DNA of 64,000 bases from Longimicrobiales bacterium (GTDB lineage: Bacteria; Gemmatimonadota; Gemmatimonadetes; Longimicrobiales; Gaopeijiaceae), in assembly GCA_965229435.1 (NCBI GenBank), contig CBDDJE010000005.1, positions 32,628-96,627 on the forward strand, given 5' to 3'. Made by a program: the position numbers and the translations under genes. This document shows, in pieces, positions 11,010-59,150 of the stretch (within the stretch, counting starts at the first letter, position 1; the number at the start of each line of letters is the position of its first letter). The notes below the pieces were generated by a model, which worked only from the letters and a program-made list of their open reading frames with translations, was not told the DNA's origin and did not search any database.

Positions 11010-12344
11010 CTAGTTGAAGCCGCCGCCCCCGAATCCCCGGTCGAAGCGGTTGTTGACGACGTTGTTGTATATGGAGCCGAACTCGAAGCTAAGGCCGACG
11101 GAAAACTCGTAGCTGTAGCTCGTTGGCCGCTCGAATCGACCCAGGAGGATCTCCTCGTCGGTGAGCCCTTCTCGGGAGATGAAGATCTGGTCTTCCAAGA
11201 GCTCCAGGTCGCCCTCGATCTCGAGCTGGAGTCCCCGGATGAGCCGGATCTCCAGGTCGCCCCGGAGGGAAACGCTCCACTGGGAGAGGTCGTTGAGGAA
11301 CTGGCGTCCGTCGATGGACACCCGCGATTCTCCCCACGGCTGGAGCTGAAAGAGCTCCAGGCGCATGGCCTGCTGGGGACGCAGCTCCTCGGTCTCGAAG
11401 TAGATCGTTTCCTCTTCCCAGTCGAAGTAGGTCATGCCCACGTCGTAGCGGGCTGTCAGCGAGCGTCGAGGGGCTTCCTCGTACTCGAAGAAGCTGTACT
11501 CGAGGGAGATGGCACCGTCGGCGCCGAACTCCTGGTTGCGGCGGGTGGAAGCGCCCGCTCCGCCCAGGACCCCCAGCGACCAGTGGTCGGCTACGGCGTA
11601 CGCCATGAGGAGACCGGCATTCCAGTTGGTCCGGTCGTCGGTGATGCTCTCGCCGTCCTCGAGCTCGCGCTCGTCGCGGCTGAAGTTCCCGCGGACGTCC
11701 ACCTCCATCTTCCAGGCGTCGGTGGTCCGGCGGGCCTCGAATGATCCGCTCTGGCGCTGCGACTTCTCCGTCTCCTCACCCTCGAAGTCCAAGTCGGCGC
11801 TGACCTCGAAGACCCAGAAATTCCACGGGTCCTCCACCTGGCCGGGGCCCACCAGCAAGCCGGTTTCCTCCTCGCTAGCCCCCTCCACCGTGAATTCGAC
11901 GGGTTGCCCGATGAGCGACGAGTATCGTGCCAGCCCGGCACCGATGACGTTGGTGAGCCCCTGGAGGTTCTCCTGCTCGGTGTCGGTACTCCCCGAGGTG
12001 TAGGGAAGGACGTCGTCCTGGCCGTCGAGCTCCCGGAGGCCGACGAAGTCCAATGAGTACACCCGCCCACCGCCGCCCGTCTGGCTGCTGGTGATGATGA
12101 GGTGGATCTGCGCCAGTGTCCGGTCGCGGACCCAGTTCACGAAGTCGATCTCCGTGCGGAAGTAGTCCGAGTCGCAGTCTCGAGCCTGGCAGTCGAGGAA
12201 CACGGCCAGGCCGTCGGCGCGAATCTGACCGCCGGACTGTTGAGACGAGGACGGGCTCGGCGTCAGAGCCGCCGACACGATCGTGAGACAGGCGGCGGCG
12301 AGGCGTGCTCGAGTGAGGACGCGACGAATGGTGGTCGGCTCCAA
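11010..12344 (-). CDS. Hypothetical outer-membrane beta-barrel protein (444 aa).
   Basis: Signal peptide. Alternating amphipathic beta-strands rich in Y/F/W with acidic loops. C-terminus ...RFDRGFGGGGFN. Convergent with the peptidase gene, 8 nt apart. Confidence 0.55.
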   Translation of the reverse strand: MEPTTIRRVLTRARLAAACLTIVSAALTPSPSSSQQSGGQIRADGLAVFLDCQARDCDSDYFRTEIDFVNWVRDRTLAQIHLIITSSQTGGGGRVYSLDFVGLRELDGQDDVLPYTSGSTDTEQENLQGLTNVIGAGLARYSSLIGQPVEFTVEGASEEETGLLVGPGQVEDPWNFWVFEVSADLDFEGEETEKSQRQSGSFEARRTTDAWKMEVDVRGNFSRDERELEDGESITDDRTNWNAGLLMAYAVADHWSLGVLGGAGASTRRNQEFGADGAISLEYSFFEYEEAPRRSLTARYDVGMTYFDWEEETIYFETEELRPQQAMRLELFQLQPWGESRVSIDGRQFLNDLSQWSVSLRGDLEIRLIRGLQLEIEGDLELLEDQIFISREGLTDEEILLGRFERPTSYSYEFSVGLSFEFGSIYNNVVNNRFDRGFGGGGFN

Positions 12345-12466
12345 GGGCAGGTGGTCCGGAGTCGAGAGATGAGACGCAGCGGGGGCGAACGGTTCGAAGC
12401 CTAGACGTGGGTCCCCCCGGATTCGTTAAAGCGCCCGGCGACGGAGACCGCGCCGATGGTGGAGGC

Positions 12467-13195
12467 TCAACGCGGCAAACGACGTAGCCCTTCGGCTGCC
12501 GCTTCGTTTCCTCTCTCTGCGGCCTGGCCGTACCAGAACCGGGCCTGCTCCGCGCTCGCATCGACCCCCCATCCCCGTTCGAATGCCTCTCCCAGGCGGA
12601 GGGCAGGGATGGCGTCACCTGCCCGCGCCGCCCGCGACCACCACCGGATTGCTGCTGGCGGATTCTCGTCAACACCCCGGCCGTCCCGATACATGTTGCC
12701 GATGTTGTGGACCGCCAGGACGTGGCCACGACGTGCCGCGCGTCGATACCACCGCATGGCCTCGAGGTAGTCGACAGCCACACCCAGGCCCTCGTCGTAT
12801 GCCGTGCCCATGAGGAACGCCGCTTCCACGTCGCCGGCCGCGGCGAGGTCGCGAATGGTCGGGAGCAGTTCGGCGCCGAGGGCACGGGCCCGGGCCTCGT
12901 CACGGGGGAAGGTCATTCGGCCTCGGGAATGGACTCGCGCGATCCACATTCGGGCCAGGACGGCGCCTCGGTCCGCGGCCGCCCCTTCGAGGAGGCGCCG
13001 TGCTTCGTCGTCGTCCACCCGACCGGCGACTCCAGTGTACAGGTCGATGGCCCGGAGAAGGTCGGCGCTAGCCGTGGTCTCGACCCCGGCAGGGAGGCGA
13101 GTGGGCATCTGCGCCTCGGCGGCAACCGGTGTGGTGGCCATGGCGGTAGCGAGGAGGGTGGCAGAGAGGAGACTTCCCCGGAACGCGCGCCCCAC
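12467..13195 (-). CDS. Sel1-like repeat (SLR/TPR-like) protein, secreted.
   Basis: Signal peptide. Repeated G.A...LG.MY..G.GV..D...A..W(Y/F)..AA..G motifs (Sel1 repeats) occur three or four times. Confidence 0.75.
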   Translation of the reverse strand: MGRAFRGSLLSATLLATAMATTPVAAEAQMPTRLPAGVETTASADLLRAIDLYTGVAGRVDDDEARRLLEGAAADRGAVLARMWIARVHSRGRMTFPRDEARARALGAELLPTIRDLAAAGDVEAAFLMGTAYDEGLGVAVDYLEAMRWYRRAARRGHVLAVHNIGNMYRDGRGVDENPPAAIRWWSRAARAGDAIPALRLGEAFERGWGVDASAEQARFWYGQAAERGNEAAAEGLRRLPR

Positions 13196-13197
13196 GG

Positions 13198-14439
13198 TCA
13201 GCGATCCACGCCCACGGACTGCGGCCCGATGTCCGCCAACGAGGGCGTTCCCGTGGCTCGCATGGCGATCTCCAACTCCCGGGTCAGGATCTGCAGCGCT
13301 CTTTCGACACCCTCCTGGCCGAACGCACCCAGACCCCAGAGGTAGGGGCGTCCTACCGCCACCGCGGTAGCGCCACGGGCGATCCCCTTGAAGAGATCCG
13401 TTCCACGGCGGAAGCCGCTGTCGACGATGACCGGCATTCGCCCCCCTACCGCTTCCGCCACCTCCGGGAGCGCGTCGATGGTGGCCCGTCCGTCGCCCTC
13501 GGCGCGCCCTCCGTGGTTGGACACCCAGACCGCATCGATTCCGTGACGGACGGCGAGGTGGGCATCCTCGGCGGTGACCAGCCCCTTCACGATGATCTTC
13601 TGGTCGGTGATGTCCCGCAGCCGACCGATGTAGTCCCAGGTCATCGCCGACCCCGCCGACCCGTCGGGTGCTCCCCGAGGGAGGCCCCGGAGCATGGGCT
13701 TCACGGGGTCGGCTCGCCCGCCCGCTCGATGGCAGCTCGCACAGTCACGGTCGTCGGCGCGGCGGTAGCGCTCGAGCGTCAGTCGGTTCCCGGTGCCACC
13801 TGTGAGGTCGACGGTGAGGACGAGGACCGGGCACCCGGCGTCGACCGTCCGCTGGACCAGGGCGACGTTGCTCTCCCAGTTCGACCGGGCGTAGAGCTGG
13901 TACCAGACGGGCTCGCCCCGAGCCTCGTTGACCTCCTCCACCGCCGTGGAGCTCACCGTGGAGAGAGTCTGGAGGTGATTCCGAGCCGCGGCCGCCCTCG
14001 CCGTGGCGAGCTCCCCATCCGCGTGGAACGCCCGCTGACTCCCGCACGGCGCCACCAAGAGGGGGGTGGGCCACTCCCGGCCGAACAGGTTCACCGCCGT
14101 GTCGAGCTCGGAAACGTCTACCAGACGGCGGGCGCGGAGGTACATCCGCTGGAGGGCCGCTCGATTGTTCTCGTAGGTCTCCTCGCCGTCCACGCCCGTC
14201 ATGATGTAGCCATAGTGGGCAGTGGGAACCTTCTCAGCGGCGACTCGCTGGAGGTCGAAGATGTCCAGCGCCTGCGATGCCGAGTCCACCAGATCGTCGA
14301 AGGTCCGCCGTGGCGCCTCCTGGGCGATGACGGGCTCGAGACCCGCGAGTCCACCGGCCGAAGCCAGGAGAGGGCTGGCGGCCAGCCAGCGGAGGAAGTC
14401 GCGGCGACGAACGTCCCTGCGGATCTCGGGCAGCGGCAT
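13198..14439 (-). CDS. Tat-exported FMN-dependent alpha-hydroxy-acid dehydrogenase/oxidase family protein (LldD/glycolate oxidase/MftD-like).
   Basis: The twin-arginine motif RRRDFLRW plus hydrophobic segment precedes a TIM-barrel FMN enzyme with its signatures (WYQLY, VSNHGGR, VDSGFRRGTDLFKGIARGA). A variable-loop insertion contains CASCH (CxxCH). The gene sits 3 nt upstream of the Sel1 gene. Confidence 0.8.
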   Translation of the reverse strand: MPLPEIRRDVRRRDFLRWLAASPLLASAGGLAGLEPVIAQEAPRRTFDDLVDSASQALDIFDLQRVAAEKVPTAHYGYIMTGVDGEETYENNRAALQRMYLRARRLVDVSELDTAVNLFGREWPTPLLVAPCGSQRAFHADGELATARAAAARNHLQTLSTVSSTAVEEVNEARGEPVWYQLYARSNWESNVALVQRTVDAGCPVLVLTVDLTGGTGNRLTLERYRRADDRDCASCHRAGGRADPVKPMLRGLPRGAPDGSAGSAMTWDYIGRLRDITDQKIIVKGLVTAEDAHLAVRHGIDAVWVSNHGGRAEGDGRATIDALPEVAEAVGGRMPVIVDSGFRRGTDLFKGIARGATAVAVGRPYLWGLGAFGQEGVERALQILTRELEIAMRATGTPSLADIGPQSVGVDR

Positions 14440-14795
14440 CGATGACTCCGGGTGATGGATGTCGGTGGAGCCGCAGGGTGCGACCGGCCACCGTCCGGCG
14501 TCAACCGCCGGCCCCGCCACAGCGCTCATTCATGTCGGCAAGGCGACACTTTCGGTGCCGAAGATATCGAGGTGCCCCGTGTGGCACACAATATGCAAAG
14601 TTTAAGCTATTGAATATTGGACCGACAGTCGGAGTACGGGGCCGCGATCCCCGGCAAGCACGTTGGAGGCTGGTAGATGACGATGATACTGTTGGTCCCC
14701 GTATGGCTCATGACCGGGCTCGCGGCCTGGACGACCTTCATCCTTCTCGGCTTGCGGTTCGAGCCTGCGGCGGAGTCCTCGGTGCTGACCGAGGT

Positions 14796-15494
14796 CTACG
14801 TGAGGGCCTCGATGACGTCGCTTGCCGTCCTCACGTCGGGCCGAGCGCTGAGGAACTGAGCCACCACGCCGGTGGCGTTGGCCACGGCGAAGCTGATCCC
14901 GTTGAAGTTCCGCTCCGGCGGGACGCCGGGTATCGGGCGCGGGTAGGGTGAAGCCCGTAGAACGGGTCCCCTGGCCCCATGGACCACCGTGACGCCGTCA
15001 CGATCCGCCTCGGCATCCATCACCACGCCCACCACGCCGGGCAAGGACCCCGGATACCAGAGTTGGCCGTCGTGCTCGGCGGCCGAGACAATGATCGTCC
15101 CCGCCTCCACCGCCGCCTCGATGGCCGGTGCCAGTTCGATCTTCCGGAAGTCGTTGGGCGTTCCCAGGCTCAGATTCACCAGCCGCATCTTTCTGTCGAC
15201 GGCCCACCGAATGGCCGCGACGAGGTTGGCCACGGTGGTTGCCAGTCGTTTGTCGAAGACCTTCACCGCCCACAACTCGGCTGAAGGAGCCTTCTCGTGG
15301 ATGGCGGCCGCGGCAGCCGTCCCGTGGCCGAGGCGGTCCACGTAGTCGTCGGACTCCACGCCCTCCAGATCGATGCTCACGCCGCCGGCAATCCCCGGCA
15401 GATGGGGGTGGGGGACGTTCACGCCGCTGTCGACGACGGCGACGGTGATGATGTCGGTCGGGCCGGAAACTCCGGCCGCCTCTCCCGGGACCAT
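14796..15494 (-). CDS. qhpE: Subtilisin-like serine peptidase QhpE, the leader peptidase for QhpC.
   Basis: Compact S8 fold (232 aa) with Asp (VVDSGVN), His (GHGTAAA) and Ser (NGISFA) motifs. The start shares a nucleotide with the qhpF stop. It lies in the qhp gene context. Confidence 0.75.
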   Translation of the reverse strand: MVPGEAAGVSGPTDIITVAVVDSGVNVPHPHLPGIAGGVSIDLEGVESDDYVDRLGHGTAAAAAIHEKAPSAELWAVKVFDKRLATTVANLVAAIRWAVDRKMRLVNLSLGTPNDFRKIELAPAIEAAVEAGTIIVSAAEHDGQLWYPGSLPGVVGVVMDAEADRDGVTVVHGARGPVLRASPYPRPIPGVPPERNFNGISFAVANATGVVAQFLSARPDVRTASDVIEALT

Positions 15495-17227
15495 CAGCCC
15501 TTCATCACATCGATGAAGAGGTCGCGGAACGCTCGACTCCGCTCCTCGAGGTCCCGGGGCGTACCATCCTCCTCGATGCGTCCGCCCGCGAGGACGACGA
15601 TCCGCTCCGCATGCCGGGCGAGATCCAGACGGTGAGTGATGAGGACGGTGGTCCGACCCCGCTGCAGCCGCTCATAACCCTGGAGGACCCCCGCCTCCGA
15701 CGACGGATCGAGAGCCCCGGTGGCTTCGTCCATGATCAGTACCGCCGGATCGGCGAGAAACGCGCGGGCGATGGCCAGTCTTTGACGCTCCCCTGCGGAC
15801 AGCTGTCGGCCACGTTCTCCCACGACGGTATCCGCACCTTCGGGCATGGACGCGACAAGGGCGTCGAGGCCGGCAGCGGAGAGTGCCTCGGCCACTTCGG
15901 CGTCCGTGGCTTCGGGGCGGGCATAACGCACGTTCTCCGCGACGGACGTATGGAAGATGAAGGGGGCCTGCTCGACGACGGTGACGTGGCGTCGCACGTC
16001 GTCCAAGCTCAGCCCCTTGAGGTCTTTGCCGTCCAGCAGGACCCGACCCTCGTCGGGGTCCACCTGACGCCCCAGAAGGTCCGCGATGGTGGACTTGCCG
16101 CTCCCGCTCGCTCCCACGATGGCTACCGTCTCACCGGCCTCGATGGTCAGATCGATGCCCTGGAGGCCTTCGTTGCCCCTGCCGAAGTCGAGATGGACGC
16201 CTTCGAGCTCGACTCGTCCACGACACTCGGAGAGCCTGACGGGGGAGAGGGACTCCACGACTTCCGGGGGCGTATCCAGTAACGTCTGGACACGGACCAG
16301 CGAGGCTCTTGCCGTGGCCAGGTTCGTGTAGATCCCCATGAGGCCCTGGATGGGGCCCATGAGCCGACTCTGGTAGGCCATGAACGCCACCAGCGTGCCG
16401 AAGGTCATGAGGCCGTTGATGACGCGGTAGCCTCCGTACACGAAGACGACCCCCGTCCCGGCGGACAGGAGAAGTCCGGGCAGCCCGCCCGCGAGGTACG
16501 TGAAGAGCCTCATGGAGAGGAGGGCGTCGACGAAGGAGTCGTTGCGACCCCGGAACCTCTCGATCTCCCGCCCCTGGGCGTTGGAGCCCACCACCGTCCG
16601 CATCCCCTGGATGCTCTCGATGAGAAAGGTGCCGATGTCGGCGCTCCGCTCCCGGAGCACGCGTACCCGATCCTCGAGTTGACGCCGATAGCGCATGAGG
16701 GCCCACAGCGAAGGCGGCAGCGTGGCGAGCCCCACGATGAAGAGCCGCCAGTCCAAGTACACGAGCATGGCGACGGTGCCGACGACGGCCACCACCTGGC
16801 CGAACCACGAGAGGGCGGCCTCGGCCGTGACGCGCTGGATCTCGCTGATGTCGCCGTTGATGCGCGAGACGATGTCACCAAGGGGGGTGCGGGCGTAGAA
16901 ACGGGGGGAGAGTCGCTGGAGATGGCCGTACAGCTCCAGGCGCATGTCGAAGAGGATGTCCGCCGAGACCTTGGTGTACCGCATGCCGCTGACGACGTTG
17001 AGCCCGAAGGCGATGACCGTTAGGCCGACGAAGACGGCGACGAGGATCAGGAGGAGTCGGAAATCTCCGCCGAGGACGGCGTCGTCGACGATGAGCTTCG
17101 ACAGATACGGCAAGACCAGCCCGAGAGCCGTACCCAGGAGGGACAGGACGACGACGGGGACGAGGGCGCCGATGTACGGACGGACGTAGCCCAGGGCACG
17201 GCGAAAATGCGGATCGAGTAGTGTCAT
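15494..17227 (-). CDS. qhpF: ABC transporter, fused permease plus ATPase (peptide-exporter type), QhpF.
   Basis: Six TM segments at the N-terminus. Walker A (GASGSGKST), ABC signature (LSAGERQRLAIARA) and Walker B (LIMDEATGALD) are all present. It lies in the qhp gene context. Confidence 0.8.
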   Translation of the reverse strand: MTLLDPHFRRALGYVRPYIGALVPVVVLSLLGTALGLVLPYLSKLIVDDAVLGGDFRLLLILVAVFVGLTVIAFGLNVVSGMRYTKVSADILFDMRLELYGHLQRLSPRFYARTPLGDIVSRINGDISEIQRVTAEAALSWFGQVVAVVGTVAMLVYLDWRLFIVGLATLPPSLWALMRYRRQLEDRVRVLRERSADIGTFLIESIQGMRTVVGSNAQGREIERFRGRNDSFVDALLSMRLFTYLAGGLPGLLLSAGTGVVFVYGGYRVINGLMTFGTLVAFMAYQSRLMGPIQGLMGIYTNLATARASLVRVQTLLDTPPEVVESLSPVRLSECRGRVELEGVHLDFGRGNEGLQGIDLTIEAGETVAIVGASGSGKSTIADLLGRQVDPDEGRVLLDGKDLKGLSLDDVRRHVTVVEQAPFIFHTSVAENVRYARPEATDAEVAEALSAAGLDALVASMPEGADTVVGERGRQLSAGERQRLAIARAFLADPAVLIMDEATGALDPSSEAGVLQGYERLQRGRTTVLITHRLDLARHAERIVVLAGGRIEEDGTPRDLEERSRAFRDLFIDVMKG

Positions 17228-17278
17228 GTCAGCGACTGCTACTCGCCGACCGCGTCGACGTTCGGTACGTGACGGCGG

Positions 17279-18370
17279 CTACCGGTCCCCGGGCACGATG
17301 GCGACGCCCAACATGTCCTCGTCGAAGGTCACCGTCCGCATGAGCTCGAAGGTGTCGACGTCATACACGTCGATGGTGTTGCCGGCCCGGAAGATGAAGA
17401 GCCGCTCGCCGTCGGCACTCACATGCAGACTCATGCGGGGACGGCCCTCGAAGGGCTGCTTGCGCGCGACGCGGCGGCCGTCGAGGTCGAACTCCCAGAA
17501 CTCGTAGCGGCCGATCTCGGTGTACAGCGCGTACGCCTTGGTCCGGTCGGGCGACAGGGTGAATGAACCGACCGGCTCCGATGGCCCCAGGGTGTAGAAC
17601 TCCACCTCCTGATCTGCCAGCCGCACCTCGGCGATTCCCATCATCGATCGGTTCTGGATGGGGTCGCGCATGCGGTACAGGCCCGTGGCGACCCCGTTGG
17701 CGTCGTACGTCCCCGGCACCACACCGAAGCTGGAACGGCCCAGGCCCGGCTCCAGGGGTTGGGAGATCTCCCAACGGTCGATCTCCTCATAGCTGTCCGC
17801 GTCGACGGCGATGATGTCCTCGACGAAGAAGTAGAGGGTCTCGCCGTCGGGCGAGTAACGCATGCCCACGCCTCGGTCCCGGGCTTCGTCGTCGGGCCAT
17901 GGGATGGTGTCGGTGACCTGCTCGGTCGTCAGGTCGTACTCCAGGATGAAGGGTCCTTCCACGCTGTAGCGATCGATGTGTTTCGTGTAGCGCTTCACGG
18001 TGAGGAGCACGCGCTCATTGGACGGGTGGGGTGCGACGCCGTTGATGCGGACCGTCACGCTGTCCTGCGAGAGGGTGATCTCCTGGATGGGCTCGCCCGC
18101 AGCCAGATCGACGATCTCCATGCGCTGCCCTGAGGCCTCGCTCACGTAGAGCCTGGACCGATCTTCACTCACCTGGACGCCGGTGGGGATGAAGTTGTTC
18201 ATGGTGATCCGGTCCACCACTTCTTCGCTCGCCTCGTCCCACACCAGGAGGTCGTTGGTGTACGTGGCGATGTACCAGGTGGCCGTTTGACCCGAGGCGG
18301 AGGCAGGCAACAAAGCCACCCCCGAGACGAGGACGGTGAGGGTCGCGGCTACGGCGAGGAGGCGATTCAT
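17279..18370 (-). CDS. qhpB: QHNDH beta subunit (seven-bladed beta-propeller), QhpB.
   Basis: Signal peptide. The repeated-blade beta-rich sequence has a length and position consistent with QhpB, between qhpC and qhpF. Confidence 0.7.
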   Translation of the reverse strand: MNRLLAVAATLTVLVSGVALLPASASGQTATWYIATYTNDLLVWDEASEEVVDRITMNNFIPTGVQVSEDRSRLYVSEASGQRMEIVDLAAGEPIQEITLSQDSVTVRINGVAPHPSNERVLLTVKRYTKHIDRYSVEGPFILEYDLTTEQVTDTIPWPDDEARDRGVGMRYSPDGETLYFFVEDIIAVDADSYEEIDRWEISQPLEPGLGRSSFGVVPGTYDANGVATGLYRMRDPIQNRSMMGIAEVRLADQEVEFYTLGPSEPVGSFTLSPDRTKAYALYTEIGRYEFWEFDLDGRRVARKQPFEGRPRMSLHVSADGERLFIFRAGNTIDVYDVDTFELMRTVTFDEDMLGVAIVPGDR

Positions 18371-18454
18371 CGGGCTGAGCGTCGTCGTCGTTCCAGGGGG
18401 TAGTCGATCCAGGGCGGAGTCGATCCGAGCGAGGTCGATCCTGAGGGAAGCGAT

Positions 18455-18841
18455 CTAGGGGAAGATGAGGTCGAGCTTGCGCCAGTCCTTCTGGGCCGAG
18501 GCGCACTTGCCGGTCCAGTCCTGCGCGTGGTTGAGCTGGTCGGGGACGTGGGCCGGCCAGAAGCACGAGAGGTGGCAGTCGAAGATGTCGCGCTCCACGG
18601 GCTGGCAGAGGCCGGCGGTCCCGCCCTGGTTGTCCACTTCCCATCCGGGTGCGAAGACGAGAGAGCATCCCAGGGGGAAGTGGGGCCCGTTCTCCTCGTG
18701 AGGGGGCGTGCGGAGACCCACGACATCCATGTCGTCATGAGCGTCCGTATCGCCGGCCTTCCTGGCGTCCAGTGCCCCTTCGTGCTCGACCCACGCCTGG
18801 ATGCGGGCCGCCTTCTGATTGATTGGCTTGAGGTGTTTCAT
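18455..18841 (-). CDS. qhpC: QHNDH gamma-subunit precursor QhpC (leader peptide plus Cys/Trp-rich core that gets thioether cross-links and the cysteine tryptophylquinone cofactor).
   Basis: Core ...GCSLVFAPGWEVDNQGGTAGLCQPVERDIFDCHLSCFWPAHVPDQ...DWRKLDLIFP. My recollection is that this matches conserved QhpC blocks (GWEVD, LCQP.E, C.WPA.V, DWRKL..FP). The ATG overlaps the qhpD stop (ATGA). An alternative internal start is at 18730. Confidence 0.8.
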   Translation of the reverse strand: MKHLKPINQKAARIQAWVEHEGALDARKAGDTDAHDDMDVVGLRTPPHEENGPHFPLGCSLVFAPGWEVDNQGGTAGLCQPVERDIFDCHLSCFWPAHVPDQLNHAQDWTGKCASAQKDWRKLDLIFP

Positions 18842-20310
18842 GCGTCGAATCGCTCCAGGAAGGCGGGGTTCTTCTCAGCGAGGGTGCCGTAGATCTCGAG
18901 ACAGGTGTGGGTCCAGCTACGGACCCAGGTGCAGTAGTGCAGGTTGGCGTGGGACGAGGTGCCGTACTGGACGTGGGCTTCGTGGTAGCAGCCCCCGGAG
19001 CAGATGGGTCGGGCCCAGCAGGTGTGGCAGTCGGTTTTCGAGGCGATGTGGTGGTCGACGAGGAACTTGCCCTGTTTCTCGCGGTCCACGCCGTCGACGA
19101 CGTTGCCGATGGTATGCTCTTCGGAGCCTGCGAAGCGGTGACAGAGCGCAACCTCGCCGTCGGTGGCGACGCCCATGAGGCCGAGGCCCGCGCCGCATCC
19201 GTAGGCCTTGCTCACACCCTTGTGGATCTCCTCGATGGTGTCTTTCACGTTGGAGAAGCCGTGGTGCTCGTCCCGGAGAGCACACTCGAGCCACTCGGCG
19301 GCCAACTCCTCGAACTGACGGAGCATGGAGTCCTTCGACTCAGGGGTGATGGCGTAGTCCCGGTGGTCCTGTGTAGTGACCGGGGCCAGCCCGACCTCCC
19401 AGAAGCCGATCTCCTCGGTGAGATGCCGGAAGATCTCCAGGACGTTCATGTTCTTCTGGGTCAGCGTCACCCGTGCACCGATGGGCCGCGAACGATGCCG
19501 GCCCAGAAGCTCCTTGATCTTCGGAAGCACCACGTCGTAGGTGCCTTTGCCGTTGTGGAAGACCCGGAGGCCGTCCTGCACGGGCTTCGGTCCGTCGATG
19601 GAGATGGTGACACCGATGTGGTTGTCGGCCAGCCACTCGATGATCTCGGGCTTCAGCAGCGTCGCGTTCGTCGTCAGGCTGAACTCGATGCGCTTGCCCT
19701 CCTCGGCGGCGCGCCGCCGCCCGTACGCCACCGTCTTCTTCAGAACCGGGAAGTTCAACAGGGTCTCACCACCGAAGAAGGTGAGGTGGGCGACGGGCTG
19801 GTCCCTGTTCTCAGCCAGGAGGAAGTCCACACTCTCTTCGGCGGTCTCGTCGCTCATGAACTTGGGCTGCTTGCCGAACTTCGTGTCGACGATCTTGTCC
19901 TCGCCATACTCGTAGCAGTAGGTGCAGGCCAGGTTGCACTTGTTGGTGACGTTCAGGACCATCGTGTTCAGCGGGAAGTCCGCCGGCGGCAGGTCGTTGA
20001 CCACCTGTTGCTTGGGTGCGTCCACGTCGCCGATGGCCCGGATCTCGGTGAGTTCGGCCAAAGTGCCCAGGATGCGGTCCACGCCGAAGCGATCACCGAG
20101 GTCGTCGACCAACGCGTCGTGCTCCGCCGGACCCTCTGCCAGGAGGTCGAGGATGGCGCATGCGGCCTCGTCCATCCTGAAGATGCCGGCGGACGGGACC
20201 ATGTAGAGGAAGCGGGCGCCGTGGGCTTCGAAGGGGTGAAACTCCCTCAGAGCCAGAAGGGGACTCGCCCCCGTGGTATCGGGTGCTCCGGTGGCAACGG
20301 GTGGGTTCAT
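18838..20310 (-). CDS. qhpD: Radical-SAM/SPASM-domain peptide maturase QhpD (forms Cys-to-Asp/Glu thioethers in QhpC).
   Basis: CNLACTYC matches the CxxxCxxC rSAM motif. Clustered C-terminal cysteines (CGAG...CHR, CHTCWARPICSGGCYHE, CTWVRSWTHTC) match a SPASM domain. About 490 aa. ATGA overlaps with both neighbours. Confidence 0.9.
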   Translation of the reverse strand: MNPPVATGAPDTTGASPLLALREFHPFEAHGARFLYMVPSAGIFRMDEAACAILDLLAEGPAEHDALVDDLGDRFGVDRILGTLAELTEIRAIGDVDAPKQQVVNDLPPADFPLNTMVLNVTNKCNLACTYCYEYGEDKIVDTKFGKQPKFMSDETAEESVDFLLAENRDQPVAHLTFFGGETLLNFPVLKKTVAYGRRRAAEEGKRIEFSLTTNATLLKPEIIEWLADNHIGVTISIDGPKPVQDGLRVFHNGKGTYDVVLPKIKELLGRHRSRPIGARVTLTQKNMNVLEIFRHLTEEIGFWEVGLAPVTTQDHRDYAITPESKDSMLRQFEELAAEWLECALRDEHHGFSNVKDTIEEIHKGVSKAYGCGAGLGLMGVATDGEVALCHRFAGSEEHTIGNVVDGVDREKQGKFLVDHHIASKTDCHTCWARPICSGGCYHEAHVQYGTSSHANLHYCTWVRSWTHTCLEIYGTLAEKNPAFLERFDA

Positions 20311-22151
20311 CGAGGTGCCTCGGAGGTTGAGCCGGGGTGTGTGGGACCTGAGGGTGTGGAGCCAGGAGCGTCCACGCCCGTCGAGCCCAGTCCGGTCGAG
20401 CCGTCACCCACGGGTCGCCGCCCGTCGTCGATGGGACGCCACGGGTCGAACTTGATGTAGAGAGGCACCGTCACCACCAGGTGACCCCGGGCGGTGAGGG
20501 GCTCGCCGTCGGAGCGGGCGTGTGTCGCCACGACCCAAACGTCTCCGATGTTGTTCCGGAGGCCCGAGCGGTCGGGGTTGGGTCCGTCCAGAGCCGGAAC
20601 GAAGACGCCGTCCTGACGCATGGTACCGATGAACTCGATGTCATCGTCGCCGAACACGGCCGCGTATTCCTCGACGTGCCACGAGACGTCGACCCGTCCG
20701 AGCTCGAGGTCGTCCTCGGTGTCGGGCTCGCCGTCGGCGCCGTTGTCGTAGCCGACGGCGTCGAAGATCTCGTACTCCTTTGGAAAGGCCGCTCCACCCA
20801 CTCTGGCCATCCCCGTCACCGGCGTGACGGCGATGCGATCGAGGCCGTCGTGGACCACCACCAGCTCGGGCCGGACGACGCCGAACGCAAAGAGATCGCG
20901 GTGTCCCGTGAGTGCGTCGTCGTCCACGGCAAGGCGGACGCGGTAGGCGTCGGCCGATCGTGACTCCACCGATACGACCTCGACGCCGGCTCCGAAGTCC
21001 AGCTCATCCGTGGCGGACCCGGACGTGGGGAGATTCTCGCCATAGAGCGTGACGGAGGTGGTCTCACCGACCTGAAGCGCCTTGGGGTGGACGCCCGACA
21101 GAACCGGGGCACCCGACACCCTGCGGAGTTCCACGTCCGGGCCCATCTCCTCGTAATCCCCCCTGAACCAGCGTCCGAACATCTCCTGCTGGTTCCGCTC
21201 GACGAACATGACCTCGCGGAGCTCGCTGTCGGAGCCCGGATTGGAGCGACCACGCCACTGGTAGCCGGTGTAGACCATGGCCTGGCCCGAGCGCTCGACC
21301 CGCTCGCCCGACTCGGCGTACACGTAGCTCGCCGTGGAGGTGAACGCGTCGGGATCGTTCGCCACCGGGGAGATCGTCAGCGTCCCGTAGAGGGGGCCCT
21401 TGCCGACTTCATACCCCGACAGGGCCCACTCGCCGGCGAGGCGAGGTGACCGCTTCGTCGTCTTCCAAGCGGTCCATTCGGCCGTCTCCAGGGGAAAGGC
21501 CTCGGAGAGGTGATCGATGGCCCGATCCATGGGATGGCGGGGATCCCCTTCTTCCGGTGGTGGACCAGCCCGTCGGAAAGCCTGGAAGTCCACCAGGGGA
21601 TAGAGAGCGCGGTGCGTTGCGAGGAGCAGGCCCCACTCGTCTCTCGTTCGGCGCTGGGTGATGACCCGACCCATGGAGTGGCACTGGATGCACGTGAACT
21701 CCACGTCCGAATCGCCCGGGTAGTCGTACGGATAGCCGATGCTCCGGGCCTCCACCTCGAAGTGGCCTGGCCGCAGCTCCTCCGGAGCCAACCCCTGCTC
21801 GTCAGCCAGGTAGCGGGCGATTTCGCGAGCGTCATCCTGGTTCAGGCGGGCGCCGTGGAGGGCGACCATACGGCGGATGGACGTCTGCCATCCCTCCGGC
21901 GTCTTGCGGAGGTACGAGATCCGCGACATCCGCCCCTCGTCGTCCACCGTGTGGCACCGCGAACAGCGGTCGATGACGGTCTGGTTCTGGACGGCGTAGC
22001 CTTCTGGGATCATCGACGGTGCCGGGTCCGCCGATTGTTGGGGGATCCAGGCCAGGAGAACGCCGACGAGGGCGGTGCCGGCGAGGACGAGCGGGAAGCG
22101 TGCAGGAGACGCCATCGACCCCGGGGTGTTGGAGTGAACGTGCGAAGACAT
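20307..22151 (-). CDS. qhpA: QHNDH alpha subunit (dihaem cytochrome c), QhpA. The true start is possibly at 22115.
   Basis: Signal peptide. Two CxxCH motifs (CSRCH, CIQCH) sit in the N-terminal dihaem domain, followed by large beta-rich domains. The stop overlaps the qhpD start. Confidence 0.8.
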   Translation of the reverse strand: MSSHVHSNTPGSMASPARFPLVLAGTALVGVLLAWIPQQSADPAPSMIPEGYAVQNQTVIDRCSRCHTVDDEGRMSRISYLRKTPEGWQTSIRRMVALHGARLNQDDAREIARYLADEQGLAPEELRPGHFEVEARSIGYPYDYPGDSDVEFTCIQCHSMGRVITQRRTRDEWGLLLATHRALYPLVDFQAFRRAGPPPEEGDPRHPMDRAIDHLSEAFPLETAEWTAWKTTKRSPRLAGEWALSGYEVGKGPLYGTLTISPVANDPDAFTSTASYVYAESGERVERSGQAMVYTGYQWRGRSNPGSDSELREVMFVERNQQEMFGRWFRGDYEEMGPDVELRRVSGAPVLSGVHPKALQVGETTSVTLYGENLPTSGSATDELDFGAGVEVVSVESRSADAYRVRLAVDDDALTGHRDLFAFGVVRPELVVVHDGLDRIAVTPVTGMARVGGAAFPKEYEIFDAVGYDNGADGEPDTEDDLELGRVDVSWHVEEYAAVFGDDDIEFIGTMRQDGVFVPALDGPNPDRSGLRNNIGDVWVVATHARSDGEPLTARGHLVVTVPLYIKFDPWRPIDDGRRPVGDGSTGLGSTGVDAPGSTPSGPTHPGSTSEAPR

Positions 22152-22224
22152 CCTGCGTCGGTGACGGCGACTTCGCCAGGGGCGTGGATCGATTCCCGGA
22201 CGGCGTCACCGTGAGGCCGGGGAG

Positions 22225-23826
22225 CTAGGATCCTCGCCCCTTCTTCCCTTCGCGGGTCTCAGCGAACCCCAGGAGGCCGGCGGCGAAAGCGGTCGAGAGC
22301 GCCGTGAGGTAGTCGGGGAGGGTGACGGGGGGCGCTACGGCGTTGTAGGCGGCCCAGCCGTCCGCGACATCGTCGTGGCGGGGGGCGATGTCCAACAGGG
22401 CCCGCAGGTCCACGCCCCTCACGAAACGAAGCCCGCTTGGTGCGAGGTCGCTGGCCACGTGATCCTGGAGGACGATCCTGTGCCCTTCGATGGCGGGGCG
22501 CTCGACGACGCGGACGGTGGGGCCGGTGACGGCGTCCAGGGTGTCGCGGGCCTTGAGGGATTCGAAGGCGGCTCGGACGTCGGACTCGGGGACTTCGGGC
22601 TCGAGGCGGTCGGGGTCGGCAACGGGGGCAGAGGGGGTCGACGAGGGGTGCTTCGCCCCGGTGTCGGTCTGTGTGGCGGCGGCCAACCGTGCCGCGGCTG
22701 CGCGTTCGGTCCAGTAGGGTGTCCCGTACACCTCCGCCCCCGCGGCGAAAAAGTCGGCCGAGACGGCGCGATACCGCTGGTAGACCGTGGCTTCTCTGCG
22801 ATGGAAGAAGTCCAGGGCCGTGGAGGCCATGCCGGGGTCCACCAGCGCGGTGTGGACCACGATGCCGGCGAGCCAGCCCGACGAGAGGGCTTTCTTCACG
22901 CCGAACGAGGACAGGGGATCGATGAAGGAACCCGCATCCCCCGCGAGGACGAGGCCGGGCTCGGCGAACCGTTCGGACGTATACAAGGATGCCGGGCACG
23001 CCCACGCCGACCCCACGGGCTCGGCTCCCTCTCGAAGGGGCCCGATCCGATCCGTCTTGTCCAGCTCTGCGTCGAGGATGTCGTCCACCGACGCGCCTTC
23101 CAGGTCGGCGGTGCGTTGGTCGATCATCGTCGTGAGGCATCGCATGTCGGGTCCGAGGGGCACGGACCACGCCCACCCGACGTCATAGCTCTCCACGACC
23201 GTATGATGCGACTCGTCGTCGTTCCATCCTCCCGGTCTGCGCCAGCGACGGACGACGGCGAGGGTCGTCGTGCTCCGGTCGGGCAGTCGATTGGGGCGGG
23301 CAAGGACGCCCTTCCGGCCAGTGGCGTCGACGACCCATCGGGCCCTCAGGACGATGGCCTCTCCGTCGTGCTCGCAGTGGAGTGCCCATGCCCCGGCGTC
23401 GGGGTTCGTGTCCTGGCCTGTAGACGCCTCGCGCGATCCGGATCGGCACACGGCGTCGCGAAAGACGATGACGCCCGCCTCTTCGGCGACGGAGACCAGC
23501 ACGCGCTCGAGTGAGATCCGGTCGGCGTGGAAGCCCTCTGCCTCCGAAGCGAAGTCTTCACGCCTGGGCGGGCTGCCCGCCCAGTGCACCAGATTCCCCC
23601 GATTGGGGTGGAAGGCCGCGGCGTCGACGGCTGCCAGAGCTCCAAGCTCATCCAGGACGCGTCGGGCAGACGGGGGGATCGACTCGGCCAGCGCCGCTGC
23701 CGGGGGCGTCGTCGGTCGGACCAGAGCCACCCGGTGGGCCCTCCGCGCCAGGAGAATGGCCGCCGCACACCCTGCGGGGCCCGCGCCCAGCACCACCACA
23801 TCGAGGGATCGGGCGTCGTCACTCAT
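22225..23826 (-). CDS. qhpG: FAD-dependent monooxygenase QhpG (Trp hydroxylase for CTQ biogenesis).
   Basis: The Rossmann dinucleotide motif VVVLGAGPAGCAAA is at the N-terminus. Length and context fit a flavin monooxygenase. The start is taken at MSDDARSL rather than the ORF's 5' extension. Confidence 0.75.
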   Translation of the reverse strand: MSDDARSLDVVVLGAGPAGCAAAILLARRAHRVALVRPTTPPAAALAESIPPSARRVLDELGALAAVDAAAFHPNRGNLVHWAGSPPRREDFASEAEGFHADRISLERVLVSVAEEAGVIVFRDAVCRSGSREASTGQDTNPDAGAWALHCEHDGEAIVLRARWVVDATGRKGVLARPNRLPDRSTTTLAVVRRWRRPGGWNDDESHHTVVESYDVGWAWSVPLGPDMRCLTTMIDQRTADLEGASVDDILDAELDKTDRIGPLREGAEPVGSAWACPASLYTSERFAEPGLVLAGDAGSFIDPLSSFGVKKALSSGWLAGIVVHTALVDPGMASTALDFFHRREATVYQRYRAVSADFFAAGAEVYGTPYWTERAAAARLAAATQTDTGAKHPSSTPSAPVADPDRLEPEVPESDVRAAFESLKARDTLDAVTGPTVRVVERPAIEGHRIVLQDHVASDLAPSGLRFVRGVDLRALLDIAPRHDDVADGWAAYNAVAPPVTLPDYLTALSTAFAAGLLGFAETREGKKGRGS

Positions 23827-23891
23827 GGGGTTCGCTTGCCGCGGGGGATGGGCGGCGGGATGGTTAGGGACGTTCGGGACCAACCAAGAGG

Positions 23892-25367
23892 GTGATGATG
23901 CATCGAATCGGAAGAACGGGGGTGACGGCGTTCCTGTTATCGCTCTTCGGGGTCGCCGTGTCGAGTCTCGTTGCGCCCGTCGCGGGTCAGGAGGTGCCCG
24001 CCCTCCAGGCCGACGACCTGGTCATCCTGGGAGGGCGTCTCTGGGACGGAGTGGCCGAGGACGCTCGTGCCAATCCGGGGATCCTCGTCCGCAACGGCAC
24101 CATCCTGCATATCGGTGCCGTCGATCCCATGGGCACCGGGGCCCGGGCGGTCCTCCTGGACGACGAGCACTTCATCATGCCCGGCCTTTTCGATCTCCAC
24201 GCCCACTACGCCGTCGATCTGTTCGGCCAGGGGCGCGTGGATGAGTACACCGTCAATCCCGTGATCTTCCTGGCCAACGGCGTGACCTCGACCTTCCCGG
24301 CGGGCGAAGTGGATCCGGCCGAGGCCGCCCGGGGGCGTCGACGTGTCGCCAGGGGCGAGGTACCCGGCCCGCGGATCTACGCCTCCGGGCCCTACTGGGG
24401 GACGGCTCGGCCCGGCTGGCGCCACGAGGCCATGACGCCCGATTCCATCCGGGCGGAGGCGACGTTCTGGGCTCTTCAGGGCGTGAGGGGGTTCAAGGCG
24501 AAGGGGATCCGTCCAGACCAGCTCGACGCACTCATCGACGTGGCCCACGAACACGGGATCACCGTCACCGGCCACCTGGACTCCGGCTACCGGAACTCCG
24601 TGAATCCCCGTGACGCCATCCTCATGGGCCTCGATCGGGTCGAACACTTCCTCGGGGGAGCCGCTCTGCCGGCGGAGCGGTCGGCGTACGCCAGCCTCGA
24701 GTCACTGAACCTCGACGATCCGACCACGGCCCGGCACGTTCGCGACCAAGCTCGGCTCTTCATGCGTCAGGGTGCGTACTTCGACGCCACGCTCACCGCC
24801 TATGGGTACTTCGCCGACCGTGAGCCGGTGGTTTTCGACTACTGGTTCGACGAGATGGGCTTGCTGACGCCCTACGCCCGCGAGGTCGTCGAGGGCGATC
24901 TTCCCCGAGAGCCCAGTGAGCAGTTCCGACGCATCTACTATGTGAAACGCCGGACCGTGAAGGCCTTCTGGGACGCCGGAGCCGGTGAGCACCTTACGCT
25001 GGGTACGGACCACCCGAGTTGGGGGGAGTTCTTCTCCGGCTTCGGCGCCCATCGGGAGCTCCACGCCATGGTTCTGGCTGGCATCCCACATGTGGGGGCC
25101 CTCCGCGCCGGGACGATCAATGCCGCGAAGGCCATGGGTGTCGACGAACGGCTCGGCACCATCGAGGTGGGAAAGTACGCCGACCTCCTTGTGGTGCGCG
25201 GCGATCCGCTGTCAGACATCACCGACACCCGAGACGGTCACGTCGTGATCCGGTCTGGCAGGGTGTACGAGCCCCGACGTCTGTTCGAGTCGATCCAGGG
25301 CCGGCTGGGTCCGAGGGGGCCTGGAGAGGCCGACTGGTGGAAGGGGAATGTGCGGTTGGGTCGGTAG
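23892..25367 (+). CDS. Secreted amidohydrolase-superfamily metal-dependent hydrolase.
   Basis: Signal peptide. The HxH-type motif (FDLHAHY) and later metal-ligand His/Asp blocks (VTGHLDSG, ...GTDHPS...) match the amidohydrolase fold. Divergent from qhpG. Confidence 0.75.
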   Translation: MMMHRIGRTGVTAFLLSLFGVAVSSLVAPVAGQEVPALQADDLVILGGRLWDGVAEDARANPGILVRNGTILHIGAVDPMGTGARAVLLDDEHFIMPGLFDLHAHYAVDLFGQGRVDEYTVNPVIFLANGVTSTFPAGEVDPAEAARGRRRVARGEVPGPRIYASGPYWGTARPGWRHEAMTPDSIRAEATFWALQGVRGFKAKGIRPDQLDALIDVAHEHGITVTGHLDSGYRNSVNPRDAILMGLDRVEHFLGGAALPAERSAYASLESLNLDDPTTARHVRDQARLFMRQGAYFDATLTAYGYFADREPVVFDYWFDEMGLLTPYAREVVEGDLPREPSEQFRRIYYVKRRTVKAFWDAGAGEHLTLGTDHPSWGEFFSGFGAHRELHAMVLAGIPHVGALRAGTINAAKAMGVDERLGTIEVGKYADLLVVRGDPLSDITDTRDGHVVIRSGRVYEPRRLFESIQGRLGPRGPGEADWWKGNVRLGR

Positions 25368-25901: not shown

Positions 25902-26014
25902 GGCGTTGGGCTCGCACCGCACCGTCGTGTGGTGTAGGTGCCACACGTGAGCCGGGACGGCAAATGCCGGCGGGCTCCGCCCCGCCCGGATCGGACGGCT
26001 AGCCTGATATGTAA

Positions 26015-26033
26015 GTCATTGACATAGCATGAC
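26015..26033. promoter_or_regulatory. Inverted repeat GTCAT-N9-ATGAC overlapping a TTGACA hexamer in an AT-rich intergenic islet upstream of the PEP-CTERM gene.
   Basis: gtcattgacatagcatgac equals its own reverse complement at the arms. The local GC is far below the window average. Confidence 0.35.
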
Positions 26034-26156
26034 TTGTAACGACCCGCCGCCGGCTCGCAATAAAGTTCTTGGATGGCGATACGGCGGGCATGTAGATTGC
26101 TACGTAGCATTCGCATGAACGAATGTGTGTGTCCGAACCCCCAGAAAGGACCATTC

Positions 26157-26852
26157 ATGAAGCGGGCTTTCTTCTTCGCCGTCACGCTGGCCTTCGCGCT
26201 CGCACCAACCCAGGTGAACGCGCAGATCGTCGACTACGGTGGAACGGCGACCACCGGCAGCCACTATCTCGACTTCGTGTCGGGATCATTTGTAAACGGT
26301 GGCTACGGCGTGCAGGTCGGGCCGTACGTCGGGAACTTCGTCGGCGACGGCTTCGGCCAGTTCAGTATCTACTGTGTCGACTACCTGCATTTTGCTCAGG
26401 ACGGCAACGTCGTCGTGTCCCAGATGTCGGGCTCATTGGCCTCCACTCGACTCGGACAGAACCTGTCGCAGGCTCAAGCGCGGGCAGTCTATCAAAAGAC
26501 GGCCTATCTGTCCTCTCTCTTCGCCACGACGAATCAGTCGGCGTGGGGCGGCATCCATGCCGCAATCTGGGAGATCAGTTCAGGCCAGACCCTCGGCAAT
26601 ACTGCGTCTCGGGACATGTACGTGAACATGGCGAACGCCAACTACTCCTCGGTCAATCTGAACCAGTGGTACGTCATCACCGCCGCCGGCGCTGGACTCG
26701 ACGGCCATCTGCAGAGTGGCGACGGCCTCGGCCAGGAGTTCCTCATGCGTAAGTCTGTTCCCGAGCCGGGAACGATCCTCTTGATGCTCACGGGCTTCGT
26801 CATGCTCGTCGGTGCCAGCCGCAAGCGGGTACTTGCGAGGATGAGTCTGTAG
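26157..26852 (+). CDS. PEP-CTERM sorting-domain secreted protein.
   Basis: Signal peptide MKRAFFFAVTLAFALAPTQVNAQ. The C-terminus is VPEPGTILLMLTGFVMLVGASRKR, which is a PEP motif plus TM helix plus basic tail. The body is Gly/Asn/Ser-rich. GC is lower than the surroundings. Confidence 0.75.
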   Translation: MKRAFFFAVTLAFALAPTQVNAQIVDYGGTATTGSHYLDFVSGSFVNGGYGVQVGPYVGNFVGDGFGQFSIYCVDYLHFAQDGNVVVSQMSGSLASTRLGQNLSQAQARAVYQKTAYLSSLFATTNQSAWGGIHAAIWEISSGQTLGNTASRDMYVNMANANYSSVNLNQWYVITAAGAGLDGHLQSGDGLGQEFLMRKSVPEPGTILLMLTGFVMLVGASRKRVLARMSL

Positions 26853-26881
26853 AGGACCTTGGCCGGCACGCGTAGGCGCCG

Positions 26882-26923
26882 AGCGGGGCGCGAGCTCGAA
26901 GGGCTCGCGCCCCGCTTTCGTTC
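26882..26923 (+). terminator. Rho-independent terminator after the PEP-CTERM gene.
   Basis: A perfect 13-14 bp GC stem AGCGGGGCGCGAGC / GCTCGCGCCCCGCT with a 7-nt loop, followed by TTTCGTT. Confidence 0.7.
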
Positions 26924-27007
26924 GCCCTAGATAGGAAGCGCCGGGAGGAGTCGTGCCCCAGGCGCATTCCGTCACACAGGCCTTCATCGGAGAACATCGC
27001 CCACGCC

Positions 27008-27511
27008 ATGATCGACCGAGACGTCTCACCCTGGCTCGTCTGGGGCATCTACCTCTTCGGCATCGCTTTCATGTTGACCGCTGCCATCGACCTGTTCACT
27101 ACGGTCTGGCCGTTGCGCCCTACGGAAATGACGTGGCGTTACGGCTTCCTCGGCCTCGCGGCGGGCTACCTGCAGACACCCGCCCTGGGCCTCCTGATGA
27201 TCGCGTTGGGAGCTATCTGGCAACGAAACGCCAGTCTTCTACGGGCCGTCGGAGTGGTCTGCCTCGCAACCGCCGTCCTCTACCTCGTCATCATGGGTGT
27301 CTTCGCTCTGGACGTGATCCAGGTCCGACAGATTCGCCCACCCGAGGCCCAGGCCGGCGTGCTTTATGGTGGGATCTTTCAGGAGATCAAGTACTTCGTG
27401 GCAATGTGCGTCTTCGTCCTTATCGGGCAGGGGTGCTTGAAGACCGCCAGGCAATCTGCCGCGGACTGGGCGAAACACGCGCCGGGTATCGTCACCACGC
27501 CCGGTGTGTAG
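27008..27511 (+). CDS. Hypothetical small integral membrane protein (167 aa, about 4 TM).
   Basis: Four hydrophobic helices and a Trp-rich N-terminus. No family recognised. Confidence 0.5.
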   Translation: MIDRDVSPWLVWGIYLFGIAFMLTAAIDLFTTVWPLRPTEMTWRYGFLGLAAGYLQTPALGLLMIALGAIWQRNASLLRAVGVVCLATAVLYLVIMGVFALDVIQVRQIRPPEAQAGVLYGGIFQEIKYFVAMCVFVLIGQGCLKTARQSAADWAKHAPGIVTTPGV

Positions 27512-27614
27512 GGCTGACTTGCCGGTACCCGTGTAGCTGAGACGAAGGCGACGAGCCCGTCCGAGGACCCGTCGCCTTCTTCTCACGTCGTTGGTCCGGC
27601 TAGGCCGCCTTCGA

Positions 27615-58424: not shown

Positions 58425-58498
58425 CGAGACGAACTCCGGTGAAGACGGTGACGAGGCATTGACCCTTACCCCCGGAGGGAAGATATTTCTCCACCTGT

Positions 58499-58529
58499 GG
58501 TATCCCCCCCCCAGGGGGGGTGGGATACC
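58499..58529. promoter_or_regulatory. CsoR operator: GC-tract pseudo-palindrome in the pdxH/csoR divergent region.
   Basis: GGTATCCCCCCCCCAGGGGGGGTGGGATACC has arms GGTATCCC(C/A)CCCC that are reverse complements with one mismatch. From memory it resembles known CsoR operators. It lies 50 nt upstream of csoR. Confidence 0.6.
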
Positions 58530-58578
58530 TCGAGCGAGGTTCTCGGCTCAGGCGGCCGGCGGAAACGGAGAGAGGGCG

Positions 58579-58857
58579 ATGGCGCACGAGAGGAACGACG
58601 ACGTACTGCGGCGGCTGAAGAGCATCGAGGGGCACGTTCGCGGTGTCCAGCGCATGGTGGAGGACGGCACGTATTGCATCGACGTCGTGAACCAGATCGT
58701 TGCCATCCAGCGCGCCCTGAAGAAGGTCAGCGGGCTGGTGCTGGATGATCACCTGCATTCTTGTGTGACCGATGCAATGCGCGGTCCGGACGAAGGGACC
58801 CGGGAGCGTGTGCTGGGTGAACTCATCGACGTTTTCCAGGCTTCGGGGCGCGGGTAG
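58579..58857 (+). CDS. csoR: CsoR/RcnR-family copper-sensing transcriptional repressor.
   Basis: 92 aa. RLKSIEGHVRGVQRMVEDGTYCIDVVNQIVAIQRALKKV...LDDHLHSCV carries the Cys-His-Cys ligand pattern of Cu(I)-CsoR. Confidence 0.8.
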   Translation: MAHERNDDVLRRLKSIEGHVRGVQRMVEDGTYCIDVVNQIVAIQRALKKVSGLVLDDHLHSCVTDAMRGPDEGTRERVLGELIDVFQASGRG

Positions 58858-59138: not shown

Positions 59139-59150
59139 CGGCAGCAGGTC

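Follow-up and report, generated by a model that had tools for sequence, protein, structure and literature searches.

A seven-gene locus in a Longimicrobiales genome that very probably encodes a quinohemoprotein amine dehydrogenase and its maturation proteins

According to Oozeki et al. (2021, PMC7876137), the operon for quinohemoprotein amine dehydrogenase (QHNDH), named qhpABCDEFGR, is variable in arrangement, gene order and strand use and is present in over 1300 species. The same study describes a QhpC leader of 28 residues as well as the roles of QhpD, QhpE, QhpF and QhpG, and lists QhpR as an operon member in the model organisms. QhpR is a regulator and not a component of the enzyme. QHNDH occurs in Gram-positive bacteria too (PMC8172795), and qhpA has served as a marker gene in soil metagenome surveys including Gemmatimonadetes and Acidobacteria. 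Here we analyze a stretch of 64,000 nucleotides (nt) from a Longimicrobiales bacterium (assembly GCA_965229435.1, contig CBDDJE010000005.1, positions 32,628 to 96,627), further referred to as the window. Seven consecutive genes on its minus strand (14796-23826) very probably encode a periplasmic alpha-beta-gamma QHNDH together with four dedicated maturation proteins. An earlier note on this DNA had read the locus in the same way, and gene content, family scores, residue conservation and the predicted fold of the beta subunit support that reading. As variable gene order and wide occurrence have been published, and the qhpA surveys cover these phyla, neither the order of the genes nor the phylum is surprising.

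The best described relatives are the qhp systems of Paracoccus denitrificans and Pseudomonas putida (1JJU, 1JMX, 7CTQ), which encode the same seven proteins, QhpF and QhpG being putative assignments in the window. With respect to these, the core of the gamma subunit has an identity of 47-52%, and all residues of the cross-links and of the cysteine tryptophylquinone (CTQ) cofactor are kept; the four alpha-subunit domains, the two haems, the cluster motifs of QhpD and the beta fold are also the same. In this comparison gene content, family membership, catalytic and cross-link residues and the beta-subunit fold are conserved. The differences concern the gene order (G-A-D-C-B-F-E in the window), qhpR (not found in the window's scanned open reading frames, ORFs), the predicted leader (about 42 residues against 28), two positions of QhpC (Cys113 for Ala and Phe94 for Trp42), the length of QhpG (about 100 residues more), a low-complexity C-terminal tail on QhpA, and the beta subunit, which shares just 18% identity with those of known structure. 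More distant are the CTQ oxidases LodA and GoxA, which have the same cofactor and in which a QhpG-related flavoprotein (LodB or GoxB) starts Trp hydroxylation, but which do without a radical S-adenosylmethionine (SAM) enzyme, thioethers and a haem subunit (PMC11951088); no LodA- or GoxA-like ORF is present among those scanned in the window. The ranthipeptide (PapB) and SCIFF systems use a homologous radical SAM/SPASM enzyme to join Cys sulfur to Asp/Glu side-chain carbons in a leader-bearing ribosomal peptide (PMC8172795). In contrast to these, the substrate encoded in the window would be an enzyme subunit with a quinone cofactor, and its gene lies beside those of its partner subunits.

All seven ORFs are intact and follow each other in the order qhpG-A-D-C-B-F-E. 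The earlier note had listed these co-directional genes, and each ORF is indeed found on the minus strand at the place given there; its remark that the order differs from the Paracoccus locus also stands, in agreement with the variability already published (PMC7876137). The qhpA/qhpD and qhpD/qhpC junctions are 4-nt ATGA overlaps. A third ATGA overlap had been proposed for qhpF/qhpE, where we find a 1-nt TGATG overlap instead. Translation is coupled at these three junctions, and the remaining spacers measure 73 nt (qhpG-qhpA), 84 nt (qhpC-qhpB) and 51 nt (qhpB-qhpF). The G+C content at third codon positions (GC3) is about 0.83-0.89 for all seven ORFs, as in real genes of the window, and with an overall G+C content of 65-70% throughout the window there is no compositional break at the qhp locus. 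The arrangement is not due to chance: apart from qhpF, which matches generic models only, the genes match their QHNDH families, and about 70 independent loci repeat the order.

Families were assigned with NCBIfam models and their curated cut-offs, complemented with Pfam. The gene qhpC (18455-18841, minus strand) codes for the 128-aa gamma-subunit precursor: QhpC scores 118.4 bits with NF037958 (cut-off 50) and 111.7 bits with the gamma-subunit domain PF08992. Moreover, the two gamma subunits of known structure, 1jju_C (E 2e-19) and 1jmx_G (E 2e-21), align to it without a single gap. Cys7, Glu16, Cys27 and Asp33 of the solved chains correspond to C59, E68, C79 and D85 in QhpC, and Cys37, Cys41, Trp43 and Asp49 to C89, C93, W95 and D101. 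About 70 relatives likewise keep these eight residues of the cross-links and of CTQ, and their codons were verified in the window. The four Cys, the Asp/Glu acceptors and the CTQ Trp that the earlier note had expected are consequently all conserved with respect to 1jju_C and 1jmx_G, and the motifs it quoted can be retrieved: GWEVD, LCQPVE, CFWPAHV and DWRKLDLIFP in QhpC, and CNLACTYC at residues 125-132 of QhpD.

The N-terminus of QhpC carries MKHLKP-N-KA and (D/E)VV(A/G) motifs that align with those of proteobacterial-type precursors, in one of which (D/E)VV(A/G) ends at residue 28, equal to the published leader length (PMC7876137). Based on this motif alignment, the leader is predicted to end at Gly42 and would thus comprise about 42 residues (MKHLKPINQKAARIQ...DVVG; residues 1-42, 18716-18841, minus strand). 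The predicted mature gamma subunit (residues 43-128, 18458-18715, minus strand; Trp95 codon at 18557-18559) would then have about ten extra residues (PPHEENGPHF) ahead of the first Cys.

QhpD, the radical SAM/SPASM thioether synthase (18838-20310, minus strand; 490 aa), reaches 551.3 bits with TIGR03906 (cut-off 453) and contains the Pfam Radical_SAM domain, with a CX3CX2C motif spanning residues 125-132 (nt 19915-19938). Another eight cysteines (372, 390, 428, 431, 437, 441, 460 and 470) show no variation, or almost none, among 65-68 relatives, the same holds for the CX3CX2C motif across about 60-70 related loci, and the N-terminus gives a weak Pfam match of the PqqD/RRE (RiPP recognition element) type. 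Rival maturase models all stay under their cut-offs (given in brackets): PapB at 285.2 (340), SCIFF at 260.4 (425) and RumMC at 148.4 (720). As TIGR03906 is the only one whose cut-off is passed, the protein groups with QhpD rather than with the sactisynthases, as had been claimed. The 614-aa dihaem protein (20307-22151, minus strand) is identified as the alpha subunit QhpA: TIGR03908 scores 447.8 bits (cut-off 274), the Pfam domains PF09098, PF14930, PF09099 and PF09100 are all found, and there are two CXXCH motifs (CSRCH at nt 21951-21965 and CIQCH at nt 21678-21692), both invariant in 61 relatives. The four haem cysteines are the only Cys in the protein. Its N-terminus resembles a signal peptide and the low-complexity tail forms its C-terminus.

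A number of observations weigh against a QHNDH locus. Three of the proteins remain below the curated cut-off of their family: QhpB with 63.9 bits for TIGR03907 (E 1.3e-17, cut-off 223, match over the full length), QhpG with 225.9 bits for NF049967 (its best NCBIfam model, 14 bits under the cut-off of 240) and QhpE with 164.6 bits for NF049966 (full length, 0.4 bits short of the cut-off of 165). Furthermore, in the known enzymes part of the substrate pocket is contributed by the beta subunit, yet it is here that the identity drops to 18%. Finally, a scan of roughly 50 ORFs over the whole 64-kb window revealed neither an HTH_18/AraC domain (qhpR) nor an aldehyde dehydrogenase, and besides QhpA no c-type cytochrome or cupredoxin that could serve as a partner. 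The earlier note had already remarked that no AraC-type qhpR lies alongside, and this extends to all ORFs scanned.

For QhpB (17279-18370, minus strand; 363 aa, with a Sec-type signal peptide and no Cys) a fold search was needed, since the sequence by itself is not decisive. A phmmer search against the PDB sequences did not recover the QHNDH beta chains, and a profile of the clade's QhpB sequences retrieved them weakly (E 5e-4 and 3e-3), below unrelated YVTN propellers. The AlphaFold model (32 relatives) has a predicted local distance difference test score (pLDDT) of 85 and a predicted template modelling score (pTM) of 0.82. When this model is compared to the PDB with Foldseek, the top matches are the beta chains 1jju_B (E 8e-21, template modelling (TM) scores 0.75/0.80) and 1jmx_B (TM 0.76/0.81); the next propeller follows at TM 0.55. 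The predicted fold is therefore nearest to that of the two solved beta subunits, in line with the beta-propeller proposed in the earlier note, and on this model we accept the 363-aa protein as QhpB. Public records call its relatives 'hypothetical protein' or 'YncE'. In one of the database proteins, P0095 (JGI, 486 aa), a QH-AmDH_gamma domain and, after it, a QhpB-like part have been called as one product; this would be a natural fusion of QhpC and QhpB or else a read-through in the gene call.

QhpG, the putative peptidyl-Trp dihydroxylase (22225-23826, minus strand), counts 533 aa from its ATG, with a TTG at 23883 as alternative open start. The score with its own model is followed at a large distance by LodB (104.7, second) and GoxB (88.2, fourth), both with cut-offs of 400. 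In comparison with QhpG of P. putida (7ctq_A), ten of the 11 functionally implicated residues are kept (Glu42, Arg70, Trp74, Trp181, Trp183, Asp260, Pro267, Arg307, Arg314 and Phe322) and Arg47 is unaligned; by mutagenesis or structure, the ten have been tied to the re-face channel and to the binding of flavin adenine dinucleotide (FAD) and of QhpC (PMC7876137). In a plain phmmer search halogenases outscore 7ctq_A. Nonetheless, we reject a halogenase assignment: the catalytic Lys of halogenases is absent, the QhpG-specific Arg, Glu and Trp residues are present, and the QhpG model scores twice as high as the next family.

The small subtilisin-like leader peptidase QhpE (14796-15494, minus strand; 232 aa) contains the Pfam domain Peptidase_S8 and has mycosin as runner-up NCBIfam family (66.9 bits). 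Its Asp22/His57/Ser201 triad is invariant in 56-59 relatives. QhpF (15494-17227, minus strand; 577 aa) is a half-size ABC exporter with PF00664 (ABC_membrane) and PF00005 (ABC_tran) and no peptidase domain. The libraries searched contain no QhpF-specific model, and the NCBIfam matches are to generic ABC exporters only. The assignment is based on position: in about 60 loci the gene is found between qhpB and qhpE.

QhpB has 530 relatives, of which the named ones are Longimicrobiales metagenome-assembled genomes (MAGs). Scanning one genome per species yielded 72 loci, all from MAGs. These are mostly Gemmatimonadota (Longimicrobiales, Gemmatimonadales and Gemmatimonadaceae), together with several Acidobacteriota (Vicinamibacterales), one locus labelled Nitrospirales and one labelled Acidimicrobiia; Longimicrobiales are among the closest relatives. 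Judged by its relatives, the host is most likely a not yet cultured member of the Gemmatimonadota (Longimicrobiales); an exact match to its QhpD sequence is absent from the public gene index. A tblastn search with the window proteins finds the order G-A-D-C-B-F-E in about 70 loci, i.e. in practically all loci of sufficient length for a judgement. The window is identical to none of the loci L001-L075; the nearest, L004, has 86-97% protein identity. Over the clade, identities to the window proteins range from 40 to 97% for QhpB and from 54 to 89% for QhpC. The members of this unnamed QHNDH clade (L001-L075) share a fifth Cys in QhpC, a long leader, the divergent beta subunit and the gene order, while their flanking genes differ. 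In an Acidobacteriota member (L056, 2870-5755) a gene for a TonB-dependent receptor (CarboxypepD_reg, Plug and OMP barrel domains) is situated between qhpG and qhpA, and judged by gene spacing L053 and L068 have the same insertion. The receptor hints at active uptake of a substrate into the periplasm in these bacteria.

For the working of the system (all biochemical steps, cleavage site, substrate, regulation and electron acceptor) we infer by analogy with the described enzymes. QhpC would be made with its N-terminal leader, through which it would be held by QhpD. Still in the cytoplasm, QhpD would form the thioethers Cys59-Glu68, Cys79-Asp85 and Cys93-Asp101, and the FAD enzyme QhpG would dihydroxylate Trp95. 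QhpE would cut off the leader and QhpF would carry the cross-linked peptide out of the cytoplasm. Once in the periplasm, it is expected to assemble with QhpA and QhpB (both presumably exported by Sec), and there the link between Cys89 and Trp95 as well as the quinone (CTQ) would be completed. The mature enzyme would convert primary amines to aldehydes, with electrons leaving via the two haems of QhpA.

Among the alternatives, the one that survives best leaves machinery and CTQ enzyme as they are and assigns them another substrate or role than the catabolism of n-butylamine or benzylamine, for instance the oxidation of another periplasmic amine that is imported or set free locally. We regard this as possible, though somewhat unlikely. 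It would fit a beta subunit so far under the family cut-off and so distant from the solved ones, the lack of qhpR and an aldehyde dehydrogenase among the ORFs scanned, the receptor gene between qhpG and qhpA in Acidobacteriota, and a gene resembling flavin mononucleotide (FMN)-dependent 2-hydroxyacid oxidases, predicted to be exported by the twin-arginine (Tat) route, right after qhpE in Longimicrobiales relatives. However, the known QHNDHs already accept a broad range of substrates (PMC8172795), and because neighbouring genes vary within the clade such associations may simply reflect local synteny.

Far less probable is the reading that the locus is what remains of a qhp cluster gained by horizontal transfer, in decay or no longer functional. 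A regulator not found nearby and three proteins under curated cut-offs could be taken as signs of decay, but the seven ORFs are intact with a G+C content and GC3 typical of the genome, and the catalytic residues are invariant in about 70 relatives that have diverged to about 40% identity, which indicates purifying selection. A ranthipeptide- or sactipeptide-type cluster for a peptide made by the ribosome and modified after translation (RiPP), in which the Cys-rich peptide would be a secreted bioactive compound instead of an enzyme subunit, finds some ground in the protease and ABC exporter common to many RiPP clusters and in the matches of the radical SAM enzyme to PapB (285 bits), SCIFF (260) and other peptide maturases, but is effectively refuted: the PapB and SCIFF scores are under their cut-offs whereas that for QhpD is over its own, the peptide is a full gamma-subunit homologue retaining the CTQ Trp, and alpha and beta subunit genes flank it, conserved together in about 70 loci.

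Returning to the QHNDH locus, QhpC contains a fifth Cys besides the four that are known from the model enzymes. This residue, C113 (codon 18503-18505), aligns to Ala61 of the model enzymes and is followed six residues later by Asp119 (codon 18485-18487), which corresponds to Asp67 and is invariant in the family. Both Cys113 and Asp119 are present in 70/70 clade members. Of 30 full-length sequences (both gamma subunits of known structure and 28 sequences that represent the whole family at 50% identity), 23 have a Cys in this column; carriers include clusters of Bacillus badius, Aneurinibacillus, Lindowbacteria and Poribacteria, and the fifth Cys is missing from proteobacterial-type QhpC sequences. 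The C-x5-D spacing of Cys113 and Asp119 equals that of the known Cys27-Asp33 thioether, and in the representative P0165, which has a one-residue insertion, a Glu stands at Cys+6, the same offset as the Asp in the others. A disulfide within the enzyme is not possible for Cys113, since QhpB lacks Cys and QhpA has its four haem Cys only.

These patterns raise the idea of a fourth thioether, Cys113-Asp119, made by QhpD both in the clade and in the majority of QhpC lineages outside Proteobacteria. We put it forward as speculation and consider it unlikely: Asp67/Asp119 is invariant even in sequences that lack the Cys. The AlphaFold model of QhpC is poor (pLDDT 47). That the two model enzymes have Ala61 in place of the Cys would explain why no such link has been seen so far. 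In the literature searched, which excluded the 2015 Journal of Biological Chemistry (JBC) paper on QhpD (PMC4409272), we found no mention of a fifth Cys or a fourth link. Whether the gamma subunit outside Proteobacteria has three or four links is, given the conservation of the fifth Cys, a question that can be tested cheaply.

The identification is correct and by itself adds little, as QHNDH and the seven qhp genes have already been characterised biochemically. From the sequences compared, the unannotated divergent beta subunit, the predicted leader of about 42 residues and the conserved fifth Cys appear to be specific to the lineage. The practical value lies mainly in annotation: the curated beta-subunit model misses QhpB in a clade of about 70 genomes, and a new model built from the QhpB sequences of this clade would complete the QHNDH calls in Gemmatimonadota and Acidobacteriota.

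Regarding sequences between the genes, the 65-nt divergent region that separates qhpG from the neighbouring amidohydrolase gene (23827-23891) is presumed to hold the promoter, judged from position only. A scan of 12300-24200 with the sigma-70 consensus did not find a promoter, and terminator-like sites in the qhp locus are at chance level. The qhpC-qhpB spacer (18387-18455) is filled by a 16-bp unit (GGATCGAC plus 8 nt) in about 4.4 copies. Elsewhere this repeat is seen only in the closest relative, L004 (5 copies); other relatives have unrelated sequence or a very short spacer at this place. On the other side of the locus, qhpE is separated by 356 nt from the FMN dehydrogenase gene, and this gap contains an AT-rich stretch (14585-14619, CAATATTCAATAGCTTAAACTTTGCATATTGTGTG, minus strand) which is conspicuous in a genome of 67% G+C and may be a promoter or operator.

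The gene upstream of qhpG encodes an amidohydrolase (PF01979; 23892-25367, plus strand) with a hydrophobic N-terminus, whose start lies 65 nt from the qhpG ATG. This agrees with the secreted, divergently transcribed amidohydrolase of the earlier note. Directly downstream of qhpE follows the homologue of FMN-dependent 2-hydroxyacid oxidases/dehydrogenases (13198-14439, minus strand; ORF open to 14529), for which L-lactate oxidase is the best PDB match. Homologues are also located in L001 (13592-14839) and in about 20 other loci. The protein is probably periplasmic given its conserved Tat signal (RRRDFLRWLAASPLLASAGG), which seems unusual for the family. Next comes a Sel1-repeat gene (12467-13195), and the pair is conserved in Longimicrobiales relatives only. 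All three of these neighbours were considered as parts of the system and rejected, because they flank qhp only in the closer Longimicrobiales relatives.

Some features further away in the window deserve mention. At 58177-61487 (plus strand) a CsoR-type repressor domain precedes a P-type ATPase with an HMA domain, and the two resemble a pair for copper efflux; no transcription regulator other than this CsoR-type metal sensor was recognised in the window. Nearby, an S-adenosylmethionine riboswitch (RF00162, 80 bits; 61647-61767, plus strand) is located upstream of a gene for a pyridoxal phosphate (PLP) enzyme of Cys/Met metabolism (61856-63172). Closer to the qhp locus, an ORF at 26073-26852 (plus strand) has no Pfam match and ends in a PEP-CTERM-like sorting signal (VPEPGTILLMLTGFVMLVGASRKR); it is situated in the segment of the window with the lowest G+C content (26001-28000, 0.62).

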